A DNA stretch of 64,000 bases, from contig CAVQMM010000001.1 of the NCBI GenBank assembly GCA_963713615.1, forward strand, positions 1,984,001-2,048,000, read 5' to 3'. The DNA comes from an uncultured Chlamydiae bacterium (GTDB lineage: Bacteria; Chlamydiota; Chlamydiia; Chlamydiales; JAJFMA01). The position numbers and the translations under genes are program-made. How positions within the stretch are numbered: the first letter of the stretch is position 1; each line of letters starts with the position of its first letter. Below are positions 43,530 through 52,151 of the stretch, piece by piece. The notes below the pieces were generated by a model. That model saw only the letters and a program-made list of their open reading frames with translations, made no database searches and was not told the origin of the DNA.

Positions 43530-44063
43530 TCATGCTAACCTCAAAATTGCTTCAGTCCTTTCAGGTAAAGAACCTGCGGGAATTTTTATGCACTCGAAAT
43601 CAAATTTGGCATATGTCTCAGCATGAATTTTTTCAAATGCTAAGGAATCTTCAAAGGAAATTTTTCTTGCCTCCGTGTGGGTCACAAAGCCCAAGTTATC
43701 AATAAAAAAGACCTTTTTTTGATAAACTTGTCCACTTTGCAAGCGTTCTATTTCTTTTAAAAGAACGTCAGATGGAGAATATTTCATATATACAGCAAGC
43801 GCATAGGTACAGAAGGGCGATCGATCATAAAATTGCAGTGTTGCATGGACATTTGCCATCTGAATTTCTCTCTGCTTTTGCAAGTTTACGATTTCATCAA
43901 TAAAACGTGGGTTTTCCCAGGGGGCCAGATTACCTAGAGCTTGGCTCAAGGCAATCACATCAGTTGCTGCTTCATTAACCACAGCATACCCTTTAATTTC
44001 TAAAGCTCTAATAATAAGAGTTTTTCCTGATCCTGGAGCACCTGTTAAAATATATCTTTTCAT
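43530..44063 (-). CDS. AAA_28/NadR-like P-loop NTPase or kinase
   Basis: ILTGAPGSGKT, FYDRSP. Confidence 0.85.
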   Translation of the reverse strand: MKRYILTGAPGSGKTLIIRALEIKGYAVVNEAATDVIALSQALGNLAPWENPRFIDEIVNLQKQREIQMANVHATLQFYDRSPFCTYALAVYMKYSPSDVLLKEIERLQSGQVYQKKVFFIDNLGFVTHTEARKISFEDSLAFEKIHAETYAKFDFECIKIPAGSLPERTEAILRLA

Positions 44064-44171
44064 GACTCCATAGTGTCGAAAGTACTTTTTTCGGTTCTTA
44101 TGAAAAATTGGGGTGATTCCAAGCGCCCCCAAATTCTTCCCAAGAACCTTTTTTCTGTCACAGAGTGGACC

Positions 44172-49500: not shown

Positions 49501-52151
49501 TCGGAGAGCATGAGACTTCCGCGATAAGTTGCCGAAGAGCCTGATAGCAGTTCTCCAGCCGGCGAGTAGGTCTCTTTACTGGTGATATTGCCCAAAACGT
49601 CATAGTGTAGTTGGGTATAAGAGCCGTTTTTGCCGATTTGCTTACGCAAAGAGCCATCTAGATTATACTCAAAGCGCTCTGCAGTGCCGTCAGGGTATTC
49701 AATAAGAGTGGGCTGGCTGCGTATGTTGTAGTTTTTTCGTGTGATATTGCCTTGCACATCGGTCTCGGCGATGACGTTACCGGCGATGTCATATTCACGT
49801 CTGATTTGCAGCTCAATGGTATGGCCTTCAGCATCGGCGCAGGGGGGTAGAGTGGTGCAAATGAGTCTGTTCAGCTCATCGTATTCATAGCGCGTTTTGT
49901 TCCCGTAGATGTCAACGGAGGCTATGCAATTTCCTAAATGGTCATAGGTATAGCTTTGCTTGAGACGCAGTCCATGATTGCAGACGTGCTCTTGTGTGAT
50001 GAGACGATTGGAGCAATCGTAGGTGAATTCGAGATGAAAATCTTGGCTGGGGCCTTGTTCATAGATTTTGTTGCCATTGGCATCGAAACGTCTCTGGATG
50101 ATTTGTCCAAGAGCATTGCGTTCAAAAATGGGATTACCCATCGAGTCATAGTCCCACTGCAGAACATAGCGCAATTCGCCTTCGGCATCATGATGTGCGC
50201 ATTCCTTGATCCATCCTTCTCGTGTATAGCTGTTGGTGACAAATCCTAGGCTATGCTCTGTTTTAGTGTTGGTGTCATAGTAGTGTTCATCGATACGCAT
50301 CGGCAGGCCGATACAGGGAGCTTTAGGGTCTTGGACAAAATAGGTGATCTTGCGGACGGAAACATCGGTGTGGTCATTTACGGTCTGGCCACTGCCGTCA
50401 TCAATAAAGGTCTTAATGAGGACTCGATTTTCATCATAGTCGTGAAACTCTCGGGATAGAATGCGTTGGCCATCGCCCACGCATTTAGCTTCGGGGAGAT
50501 CTGTCTGTTGCCAATACTTCAGGGTTGTTTTACGTCCATTGGGTAATAGCTCCGACTGCAACAGACGCAATGGGGTATCGAGATACGTTCGGTTTACCGT
50601 ATAGCGTTCACAGCCATTTTCAAGGGGATGGCCTTCTCCGTTGAGTTGAGGCGCGATGGTGTTGTTGCCGCTTAGATTCCCCAAGATATGCTCAGCAACG
50701 ACGTTATGTTGTCCATCGTATTGTAGGTAGCGACATGAGCGAACGGTGCCATCAGCTTCACATAACGCTCTATTGAGGAGATTTGTGTGTTGATGATGGG
50801 CTTCTTTGCCCCAGAAGAGTTTATCCGAAAAATACTTTGTGTAGGTTGCGTCTGAGTTGCCTAAATAGTGTTCGATTCTTTGAAGACGCTGATCATCGCC
50901 ATAATGATAGAGGGTTTTGTGGTTGCTAGCATCGCGGACATCGGTAAAACCGTTTTGATAGAAAAAGCGGTGTGTCAATACGGGAGAGTCATCGGAGCCT
51001 ACAGGTGCTTTGAGAAGCCTGACACGATCTCGACGGATATCGGGTTTGTTGACTGCCTCAACACGCACTTTCTGATCTCCAACCCAGTTGTCGCCGGGCA
51101 AATAGTATTCAATCTGCTGAAAGCGTCCTTCAGGCAAGCTCCTGCTGCAGACTTTTTCCGTGGACTTGTCTTGTTCATAGGGAAGATAGGCATAGGTCAA
51201 CGGAGGAGCGTTTGGCCGAACGACCTCAGAAAGATAGGTACGATTGCTGGCAGAATTGCAAAATTTGTAGGTGACCTCTCTGCCATCATTGGCGCGCACG
51301 GTGACTTTTTCATTGGGCGGGTTATGTTCCGAATGGTCAAATGTCAATGATCCAAGCAGGCGATTTCCTGAGCTGTTGAAAAGCTGGATCTTGCTCATCC
51401 TGATATTGATCAAGTCCCAACGGCCCACTTGCTTTTGCTGCCGGAGATACTCATAGGTGACAAGAGATCCATTAGTACGCCGTTCTTCAGTGAGCTGAAA
51501 GTAGATGGGAAGTTCATCTGAATATCCGCCCCACTGTGGCTGATCAAATCGCTTAAAAGTTCTTTCGCCTCCATGACATAAATGTACGAGGAGCTTCTCT
51601 TCCGACACACGCTTGTGTGGATGATAGTAAGCGATTTGGTTTTTTAGGTTTGTGCGCCCGCTGATCTCACCTGTGCCTGTATTTGTGAGGCCTTTCTGCC
51701 ATTCTGACAAACGCTGATCGGCATGCATTCCTCTATCAGGTGTGGCATAGTAGTCTTTTTTTTGTGTAGTCCTACCTTTGCGTACGCTGCCCCATAGACC
51801 GATGTAGGAGACTGCGCCTCCGGTTGCTTCCGAAGCCTTGATGAGGTAATAGGGTCCTTCACGAGTGAGACAAGCAGTTCTGGCGTGGTTGTAGGTCCAG
51901 CCATGACAGAGCATTCCATCGGTCCAGTCAGCTGAGCAGTAAAAACGCTGTAAAGAAAGGGGCTCTGAACCGGCAATGGCGATATCGACCTCAGATTCGC
52001 TATAGGTGCCTGTGATTGCGTTAACACAGCCAGCAACGACACCTGAGGGGTCGCCCTCTACCTCTGCATGAGGCAAGTTTGTCTGCGTTTCTGCTGCTAG
52101 CAGAACCGGGACAAGACATAGATGAAACAAAACAAACAGACCACGAAACAT
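46578..52151 (-). CDS. Rhs/YD-repeat protein with signal peptide, DUF6531-like region and hydrolase-like C-terminal tip
   Basis: VNAITG..LQRFY, many YDxxGR repeats, core end RYYDAETARWTTRDP...YVHNSPLTHIDFYGL. Confidence 0.93.
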   Translation of the reverse strand: MFRGLFVLFHLCLVPVLLAAETQTNLPHAEVEGDPSGVVAGCVNAITGTYSESEVDIAIAGSEPLSLQRFYCSADWTDGMLCHGWTYNHARTACLTREGPYYLIKASEATGGAVSYIGLWGSVRKGRTTQKKDYYATPDRGMHADQRLSEWQKGLTNTGTGEISGRTNLKNQIAYYHPHKRVSEEKLLVHLCHGGERTFKRFDQPQWGGYSDELPIYFQLTEERRTNGSLVTYEYLRQQKQVGRWDLINIRMSKIQLFNSSGNRLLGSLTFDHSEHNPPNEKVTVRANDGREVTYKFCNSASNRTYLSEVVRPNAPPLTYAYLPYEQDKSTEKVCSRSLPEGRFQQIEYYLPGDNWVGDQKVRVEAVNKPDIRRDRVRLLKAPVGSDDSPVLTHRFFYQNGFTDVRDASNHKTLYHYGDDQRLQRIEHYLGNSDATYTKYFSDKLFWGKEAHHQHTNLLNRALCEADGTVRSCRYLQYDGQHNVVAEHILGNLSGNNTIAPQLNGEGHPLENGCERYTVNRTYLDTPLRLLQSELLPNGRKTTLKYWQQTDLPEAKCVGDGQRILSREFHDYDENRVLIKTFIDDGSGQTVNDHTDVSVRKITYFVQDPKAPCIGLPMRIDEHYYDTNTKTEHSLGFVTNSYTREGWIKECAHHDAEGELRYVLQWDYDSMGNPIFERNALGQIIQRRFDANGNKIYEQGPSQDFHLEFTYDCSNRLITQEHVCNHGLRLKQSYTYDHLGNCIASVDIYGNKTRYEYDELNRLICTTLPPCADAEGHTIELQIRREYDIAGNVIAETDVQGNITRKNYNIRSQPTLIEYPDGTAERFEYNLDGSLRKQIGKNGSYTQLHYDVLGNITSKETYSPAGELLSGSSATYRGSLMLSEIDPNGNVTHYSYDAAGRPLRISKTTGWTQYAYDSLGNKAKTIQWVGPSEDDVRVTIEQHDLLGRVIEQRIEDKQGTIFSRIQTQYDPAGHVCAVITHTASGAAMTQTLYNALGQPWKVIDAEGHETLTHYDYSHINRFGERVLQMTVVDPLGNQTITTQDPLGRTANVIRKDSFGQETARTTQTHDSAGRLIKRIDHVKTADNPDRQVITEWQYDAMGRLIALHEGSGTAQLRQTFFNYNAFGQKDRDIFGDGLMLSYTYDPLGRLAYHAASDHSVAYRYTYDPLGNILSVTDEMSGVITSRNYDTDSRIIQETLGNGLSSTYEYDPLGRLISLHLPDGSGVRYVHDSNHLREISRVDTSGNIRYTHHYLTYDQSGNVLTAQFVGSAGTATYTWDQLQRLRRMHTPHVEEEIPATGYDAAGNLLERRLRNPEGEIHNQYTFDPLYQLISEEGLSKHQYQYDSLNNRIVKDRFACDIDPLNQLLRQGDKEYQYDARGNRIAETGNKLDATYAYDALNRLVEVNVEGRRWRYQYDPFNRRLSKTCYDANGNISDQEHYLYCDQMDIGAINKDGVMHQFRVLGKGFGAEIGSAVAIELGSNLYVPVHDHSGHVVALLSHATGEVVQNYSYTAFGEEPRHRQVWLWGLHGTDPSSANPWRFASKRHDPETGWILFGRRYYDAETARWTTRDPRGYDDGPNLYAYVHNSPLTHIDFYGLEAARCSRCGKPLERQARPRWKPYVDRSSRRQRQSNAPKMRHCSWFEKFQSWYPSSHNYDLGCPEPEGGGIGFTNGIKNNGPESKGHSKHVHDLAGGVNVRGTCNETHGIVVDLIECVMGLWGVTTDPVKRLHEKWDRALADGGTFLEVCTSQGTIHVRNALLTYSEEKRQQILVLAIAPAAYIVPGTCRQVYHYRNKNPFRDPIPYIDRKGARIARGTIREVDSHPDAPWFDHTVQSPTWDDITGPHLKIYRESEGERI

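Follow-up and report, generated by a model that had tools for sequence, protein, structure and literature searches.

We analysed a stretch of 64,000 nucleotides from an uncultured Chlamydiae bacterium (contig CAVQMM010000001.1, positions 1,984,001 to 2,048,000), hereafter the window, whose own positions serve as coordinates throughout. On its minus strand the window carries the open reading frames (ORFs) of a large Rhs protein, a protein of 223 amino acids (aa), a lipoprotein and a P-loop protein. We propose that the first two probably form a Sec-exported hydrolase toxin and its immunity protein, used by chlamydiae against other chlamydiae or bacteria that share their host cell.

The Rhs gene (46578..52151, minus strand) encodes a polymorphic toxin of 1857 aa with a signal-peptide-like N-terminus, a DUF6531 domain, a YD/RHS core and a hydrolase tip. 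Its N-terminus reads MFRGLFVLFHLCLVPVLLAAE and includes a predicted Sec signal peptide of about 21 aa (52089..52151, minus strand; maximal hydropathy over 10 aa of 2.85). Signal peptides were assigned from sequence and hydropathy, and a hydrophobic N-terminus was also present in 37 of 40 full-length Rhs carriers of related tips. DUF6531 (aa 43-91; 51879..52025, minus strand) was matched in Pfam at E 2e-10, while the core matched PF05593 (E 3e-57), TIGR01643 and TIGR03696 (66.7 bits against a cut-off of 32.5) as well as solved Rhs proteins (best E 2e-35). The TIGR03696 match spans aa 1511-1598 and closes with the core-end motif PLTHIDFYGL (aa 1589-1598; 47358..47387, minus strand), the predicted autocleavage site, where cleavage would be expected by extrapolation from known Rhs proteins. 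Neither a PAAR nor a VgrG domain was found in this protein by the Pfam and NCBIfam scans. A paralogous Rhs, 48% identical over the core, bears an unrelated tip, with PxxxxDxxGL preceding the variable C-terminus. In this sense, the domains and the hydrophobic N-terminus agree with a preliminary description of the locus, which had proposed an Rhs protein with a signal-peptide-like start and without PAAR or VgrG, and its polymorphic toxin architecture is borne out by the RHS repeats, the core-end motif, the variable tip, the cognate downstream gene and orphan cassettes.

The tip (46581..47357, minus strand) follows the cleavage motif and contains, as previously described, EVCTSQG, RDPI and FDH; its length is 259 aa and not the approximately 255 first given. 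Its putative catalytic residues are Ser1749 (46905-46907), Asp1800 (46752-46754) and His1831 (46659-46661), and 26 aa extend beyond this His. The three residues were invariant in 30/30 aligned tips; among 149 complete rows from the best library matches, 148 retained all three, 131 had NG and 132 a His preceding the Ser. The nucleophile motif is CTSQG or CHSQG instead of GxSxG, the window copy having TSQG. An AlphaFold2 model built from the 30-row alignment reached a predicted local distance difference test score (pLDDT) of 95.8 and places Ser112 (tip numbering) at the turn joining strand 105-112 to helix 113-123. Foldseek searches against the PDB yielded 48 matches with E<=0.001, and every row listed was of alpha/beta-hydrolase type, the top ones being acyl-protein thioesterases and carboxylesterases. 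With VIA, the tip aligned to the lipase 6nkc with Z 13.9 (root-mean-square deviation, rmsd, 2.9; 156 aligned residues); Obc1 also scored Z 13.9, and esterases, cutinases and phospholipases followed within about 2 Z. The model clearly adopts an alpha/beta-hydrolase fold with a nucleophile elbow and the Ser-Asp-His order, as had been suspected from the residues. The substrate is less clear than the fold because esterases, thioesterases, cutinases and lipases are all represented among the matches; thus, from the earlier proposal of a lipase/esterase-type toxin, the hydrolase fold is supported, the lipase specificity not.

Relatives of the tip were found in 238 of 400 Chlamydiota genomes with the window protein as single query, and the tip profile matched 2149 clusters (50% identity); plasmids and phages gave no match to the tip. 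Outside the chlamydiae, homologs are listed in the Atlas as clusters of Myxococcota and Cyanobacteriota. Genome G005 was left out of the counts of tip relatives and partner occurrence and of the tip-profile and PF05095 surveys. The proteins that carry the tip vary: they include Rhs of about 1800 aa, Rhs of about 2800 aa whose N-terminus is greatly extended, mini-Rhs, and non-Rhs proteins that contain a membrane segment, and the partner gene is kept across these types wherever neighbours are visible. The carriers P0026, P0093, P0101 and P0158 (about 2750-2980 aa) carry the same tip; they have a signal peptide and, before their Rhs repeats, an unannotated N-terminal extension of about 1200-1370 aa; this extension contains a motif that we take to resemble a transglutaminase-like core. 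Non-Rhs carriers of 450-620 aa with an intact tip, most of them with a hydrophobic segment, occur at L127, L128, L129, L130 and L135. Behind the tips of L128, L129, L130 and L135 lies a partner gene that is often lipoprotein-like, and L127 ends its locus. Two mini-Rhs (L137 and L139, 526-551 aa) comprise a signal peptide, few YD repeats, the core end, the tip and the partner.

The gene of the 223-aa protein (45910..46581, minus strand) overlaps the Rhs stop by 4 bp and encodes a predicted exported cognate immunity protein of an unnamed family, with a core at about aa 20-180. Using the window partner as the sole tblastn query, a homolog was found directly behind the tip in 28/29 other loci. With a profile, 74 of the 87 tip ORFs at 78 loci had the partner no more than 300 bp away, or 52/65 when the 22 training rows are set aside. 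The family was present in 291 of 400 Chlamydiota genomes and in 0/24 genomes of a small-genome genus (g5), presumably Chlamydia to judge by its genome size and DUF687 content. Paralogs of the partner gene in the genome of the window lie at C1:158075 and C1:1175640. Among 100 full-length partners, 96 had a hydrophobic N-terminus and 21 a lipobox-like motif. In the genome of the window, the partner family follows 3/3 of the hydrolase tips caught by a motif scan and 0/18 of the other tips with an adjacent gene; 17 of these 18 adjacent genes have no hydrophobic start. Because only the hydrolase tips have an exported partner, the toxin would act outside the cytoplasm. We also found that partners accumulate: of 122 partner genes at tip loci, 74 lie behind a tip, 36 behind another partner and 12 behind neither, with extra copies at 26 loci and a median identity of 59% between partners of the same locus. 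Such an accumulation of divergent spare partners suggests that the targets are bacterial.

No Pfam or NCBIfam family was matched by more than 1/27 partner proteins, SUKH was not among the Pfam matches, and the Atlas neighbours of the family are hypothetical Chlamydiota clusters. The partner model had a pLDDT of 93.6 and gave no Foldseek match at E<=0.001 and no clear fold match; against solved structures the best Z was 7.9 (3ib5, rmsd 3.6, 103 aligned residues), and an entry of an effector-immunity pair belonging to a type VI secretion system (T6SS), 9jdi_C, scored Z 5.8. Several other arrangements of this family were seen. Partner-family matches lie within frames of 1602 and 1963 aa (G055:C1:655983 and G379:C4:2037084, respectively), perhaps as fusions or read-through, and the genome of the window encodes a lipoprotein-like homolog of 283 aa (G000:C1:2456039-2456890, E 2e-9) apart from any hydrolase tip found. 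A recurrent third gene other than the lipoprotein gene (about 300-330 aa, signal-peptide-like) stands behind the partner in a set of related loci, namely L010, L012, L014, L019, L023, L071, L074, L081, L089, L090, L097 and L101, being fused to the immunity gene at L014.

Co-folding of tip and partner gave an ipSAE of 0.88 against 0.00 for the best control; in calibration the mark was reached by 116/157 solved and 2/215 mismatched pairs, figures that apply roughly here as custom alignments were used. The runs share at least 55% of their contacts and the partner keeps a pLDDT of at least 90. The modelled interface comprises tip residues 127-131, 145-156 and 199-219, with tip strand 145-156 pairing with partner residues 36-45. 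The model supports binding between tip and partner, and inhibition goes beyond it. Together with the linkage (74/87) and the hydrophobic starts (96/100), the co-fold upholds the earlier suggestion that the 223-aa gene encodes the cognate exported partner of the tip. The modelled binding at an edge strand, away from the active site, would also suit a folding chaperone of a non-toxic secreted or surface esterase that releases nutrients, and some carriers indeed have no Rhs and bear a membrane segment. Nevertheless, the tip sits in the exchangeable toxin position, Rhs paralogs bear unrelated tips at it, and arrays of spare partners would be purposeless for a foldase, which makes the chaperone explanation improbable.

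The genome (3.97 Mb, 99.1% complete) encodes 12 matches to TLC nucleotide transporters, an export gate of a type III secretion system (T3SS) and GspE above the cut-off. The transporters and the export gate agree with the intracellular chlamydial organism first proposed; the sole export-gate match (hrcV) is on a 16.8-kb contig (G000:C2:13381-15480), not on the 3.9-Mb one. Genome-wide, no match was obtained for the T6SS markers PF05943, PF05488 and TIGR03361 (VipB/TssC, PAAR and VgrG) while the control searches were positive, in line with the absence of T6SS genes that had been noticed within the window. Searches for TpsB (PF03865) and the type IX secretion system (PF11751) gave 0 matches and are uninformative, their controls being also silent. 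The genome contains 13 YD-repeat ORFs that are 1500 aa or longer, of which 9 have a hydrophobic start, and orphan cassettes are numerous. Two large Rhs arrays (G000:C1:2366869-2433823 and 3056286-3085610) combine Rhs genes that encode signal peptides with numerous orphan cassettes of tip and immunity gene; the tips of these cassettes are not hydrolases, and the small genes behind them lack a hydrophobic start.

Our proposal of a toxin-immunity pair takes as directly observed the architecture, the residue conservation, the tip-partner linkage, the spare partners, the tip shuffling, the orphan cassettes and the T6SS marker searches that gave no match. Encapsulation of the tip by the core and autocleavage after DxxGL would be expected from known Rhs biology. 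Sec would carry the Rhs protein to the periplasm, where its core would fold around the tip and cut it free after DxxGL. The Rhs particle may then leave through a type II system, GspE being present, with vesicles or lysis as alternatives. The released tip would attack envelope lipids or lipoproteins, cleaving their ester bonds in the periplasm of the target cell. In that compartment the exported partner would bind the tip by contributing a beta-strand to the hydrolase's edge strand. The exit by type II secretion and the entry into the target are the least supported steps.

Several observations weigh against this proposal. Eleven of the 87 tips have no partner inside 300 bp, a further 2/87 are at contig ends, and a fourth hydrolase-tipped Rhs of the genome (C1:2965169) is followed by insertion sequence-like ORFs. 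The catalytic Ser112, Asp163 and His194 are absent from the modelled interface, so neutralisation by occlusion is not what the model depicts, and the interface residues are conserved no more than average. An exported partner could equally shield the producer during the toxin's own transit through the periplasm. Closely related genomes are not independent in the counts, and the 400-genome and closest-relative locus sets overlap. Finally, a search of the 78 loci for a conserved exporter gene upstream found none, the largest neighbour clusters reaching 7/78, and because no such gene flanks the loci, the export route is a guess.

The shielding of the producer leads to a second explanation, in which the tip is an effector directed at the host that acts on lipids or acyl-proteins of the inclusion or of amoebal membranes and the partner only protects the producer's periplasm. 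A host target was indeed put forward for the chlamydial Tox-ABhydrolase-2 in the available parts of Zhang et al. (2012; PMC3482391), and it would fit the acyl-protein thioesterases at the top of the Foldseek rows, the homology of the tip to DUF687 putative Inc proteins described below, and the 12 TLC transporter matches and T3SS export gate of the genome. However, tandem divergent spare partners (36/122; 26 loci) and orphan cassettes fit defence against non-self and not self-transit, other Rhs of the genome end in different tips, behind which stand small genes lacking a hydrophobic start, and the partner family was not found in the DUF687-carrying small-genome genus (0/24). We consider this host-directed explanation unlikely, and a toxin-immunity pair aimed at bacteria is preferred.

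The preliminary description had suggested that the tip might be DUF687-like, and reciprocal profile matches sustain this link. PF05095 (DUF687) was matched by 27/30 aligned tips at E<=0.05 (best 1.9e-16) over profile positions of about 29-208 of 537; the window tip itself stayed below the PF05095 cut-off. In one of these searches of the window protein the controls were silent, although a search with the same family was positive in 24/29 genomes. Conversely, the tip profile matched the N-termini of DUF687 ORFs in 11/24 g5 genomes, where PF05095 also matches. Judged by these sequence matches, the tip is homologous to the N-terminal hydrolase domain of DUF687, and in NCBI one Rhs of this kind already bears the label "DUF687 family protein". 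In 26 aligned DUF687-type rows the Asp was kept in 25/26, while Ser and His were found in 0/26 each, the His column being less certain. The absence of Ser and His agrees with the available parts of PMC11878206, which describe DUF687 members without catalytic residues and with a membrane bundle; CT326 and CPn0066 are putative Inc proteins with DUF687 according to the portion of PMC3048545 at hand. Unlike the window tip, DUF687 proteins have a C-terminal membrane region and lack both an Rhs core and, at the loci seen, a partner gene. In a quick tree of 59 rows and 208 columns, DUF687 branched within the tip subfamily, at a fork with a value of 88 and no star, and an alternative tree with DUF687 outside had a log-likelihood 3.79 higher and a p value of 0.613 in the approximately unbiased test (p-AU). 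Since the outside placement scores higher, the nesting of DUF687 is not demonstrated, and neither is its origin as a toxin tip. At L038 (G157:C7:29545-31820) a tip-like domain, 37% identical to Rhs tips and without Ser and His, is fused to a membrane tail. We do not regard it as an established intermediate between tips and DUF687, its tail matching DUF687 tails at a best E of 0.82 and the protein not grouping with DUF687; it is possibly an independent loss of activity.

Among known systems, WapA-type Sec-exported Rhs toxins of Bacillota combine a signal peptide, YD repeats, a polymorphic tip and an adjacent immunity gene. The plan is the same here, whereas the chlamydial producer is diderm and intracellular and its immunity protein is exported, not cytoplasmic; because the producer is diderm, the outer membrane must also be crossed. 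Tle lipase effectors are hydrolase toxins with exported or lipoprotein Tli immunity genes that are often arrayed. They share the logic of a hydrolase with exported immunity, and differ in that the chlamydial tip has CxSQG in place of GxSxG, is caged by Rhs and occurs in a genome where no T6SS was found. With T6SS Rhs effectors (for example PDB 7q97, 8h8a and 8qjc) the window protein has in common the Rhs core, the core-end motif and a tip with downstream immunity, but it begins with a signal-peptide-like sequence and not with PAAR or VgrG, and no T6SS marker was found in its genome.

A close precedent is the toxin class Tox-ABhydrolase2, which the preliminary description did not mention. In the parts of Zhang et al. 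(2012; PMC3482391) available, its signature is given as NG, [DE], [KR], HSxG, D and H, with RHS carriers, a Sec route and chlamydiae among the hosts; Table 1 includes Sec-signal Rhs toxins. Judged by motifs alone, the tip very likely belongs to this class, as the family shares NG, the His before the Ser, the Ser/Asp/His residues and the RHS carriers, with TSQG in the window copy. The same text lists Imm-SUKH for the class and describes the chlamydial copy as having no immunity protein, in contrast to the dedicated exported partner family found here. It also describes MafA/MafB of Neisseria, where a polymorphic toxin with a signal peptide is encoded close to a lipoprotein gene; MafA is constant and lies upstream, whereas the lipoprotein of the window lies downstream and is restricted to a genus. 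An RHS cluster appears among the predicted chlamydial outer-membrane proteins in the consulted portion of PMC2811131, and a word search of PMC9997750 and PMC8242063 returned no mention of Rhs. No description of the tip-partner pair or of an Rhs-DUF687 link was found in the literature searched, which covered few subscription journals. As the toxin class is already known, the system is not categorically new; as far as searched, what is new is the dedicated exported immunity family, the spread across the phylum and the connection between an intact toxin tip and DUF687, although the supplement of Zhang et al. (2012) may list related loci.

Behind the 223-aa gene lie a putative lipoprotein gene (44172..45452, minus strand; 426 aa with two internal repeats) and an AAA_28 P-loop gene (43530..44132, minus strand; E 5.5e-25). 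For the lipoprotein, ATG 45452 is the likely start, with AGGAG upstream; a longer frame (44172-45731) opens with TTG and crosses a palindromic repeat (45602..45733, no strand assigned) between the immunity and lipoprotein genes, which has many partial genomic copies (492 blastn segments in the genome for window 45500-45800). The order of tip, immunity gene and lipoprotein gene is seen at two places in the window and at one in the congeneric genome G101, where the lipoprotein follows an immunity-family gene and an apparent tip end resembling the paralogous subfamily described below. This order would fit a module of three or four genes, with a MafA-like role of the lipoprotein in anchoring or delivering the Rhs protein. 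Nevertheless, the lipoprotein was found in 2/400 other genomes (G101 and G064, both of the same genus) and at 0/78 other tip loci, also with a repeat profile; G064 has a one-repeat homolog that does not adjoin an Rhs gene, the other Rhs genes of the window genome have no such lipoprotein, and the recurrence in the window is a local duplication. A homolog of the AAA gene was seen at 1/78 tip loci, about 7 kb off and on the opposite strand. Being present in 2/400 genomes and 0/78 loci, the lipoprotein has a link to Rhs that is local to one genus at most, and the larger module is very improbable. The module is thus formed by two genes, Rhs and partner; the P-loop gene is a neighbour outside the system and the lipoprotein a genus-level passenger, contrary to the idea that four genes move together with the lipoprotein as accessory or anchoring factor. 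The lipoprotein had no match in Pfam, NCBIfam, PDB sequences or PADLOC, and a comparison with the recurrent third-gene family gave an hhalign probability of 0.2%, so that a relation to it was rejected.

The decayed recurrence reported at 30490-38280 is real, although its P-loop gene is reduced to a 5' scrap of about 105 bp (30459-30563) and the cassette reaches to about 38880. The nucleotide identity between the copies is 92.8% over the tip (37758-38282), 77% over the immunity gene and 86.5% over the lipoprotein. The decayed copy, all on the minus strand, comprises an orphan tip of a paralogous subfamily (38463..38876; 57-61% to the tips at C1:158590 and C1:1176161, with a short signal-peptide-like gene start next) and a second orphan tip, 93% identical in aa to the window tip (37748..38288). 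The latter is interrupted near its end by a DDE transposase (36530..37666; DDE_Tnp_1_assoc and DDE_Tnp_1), which we take to be of the ISAs1/H-repeat type, and its last 34 codons follow at 36406..36507. Next come an intact second immunity gene (35735..36406; 223 aa, 72% aa identity to the first) and a lipoprotein copy in fragments (33943-34914, 32633-33172 and 30608-30946, within 30459..34914) with a DDE transposase among them (30965-32524). An element with inverted ends is repeated at 12073-12692, 32940-33628 and 34682-35643, and four tandem copies of it stand behind a paralogous Rhs (C1:1173317-1175128). Between both copies of the cassette, on the opposite strand (38971-43184), lie genes for a TetR regulator, a CAAX protease, a beta-lactamase-family serine hydrolase and an Abhydrolase_3 protein.

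Chlamydiae are rarely viewed as fighting other bacteria. The means by which chlamydial symbionts keep co-infecting microbes out of amoebae are an open question, and PMC6520448 mentions polymorphic toxin domains as one possible, still untested defence. The pair described here makes chlamydial antagonism testable, with tip relatives in over half of the 400 Chlamydiota genomes sampled. It also adds an unnamed candidate immunity family, revises the 2012 view of a chlamydial hydrolase toxin without an immunity gene, and raises the question of how a signal-peptide Rhs is transported across a diderm envelope without a T6SS. On a wider scale, we tentatively suggest that most environmental chlamydiae may wage war on other bacteria inside host cells by means of Sec-exported Rhs toxins independent of a T6SS, with the hydrolase as the commonest warhead and a hitherto undescribed periplasmic immunity family as its guard, and that pathogenic Chlamydia might have lost cage and immunity gene and kept this warhead as the membrane-anchored pseudo-enzyme DUF687. 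The uncharacterised DUF687 putative Inc proteins also gain a relative whose predicted catalytic residues are intact.

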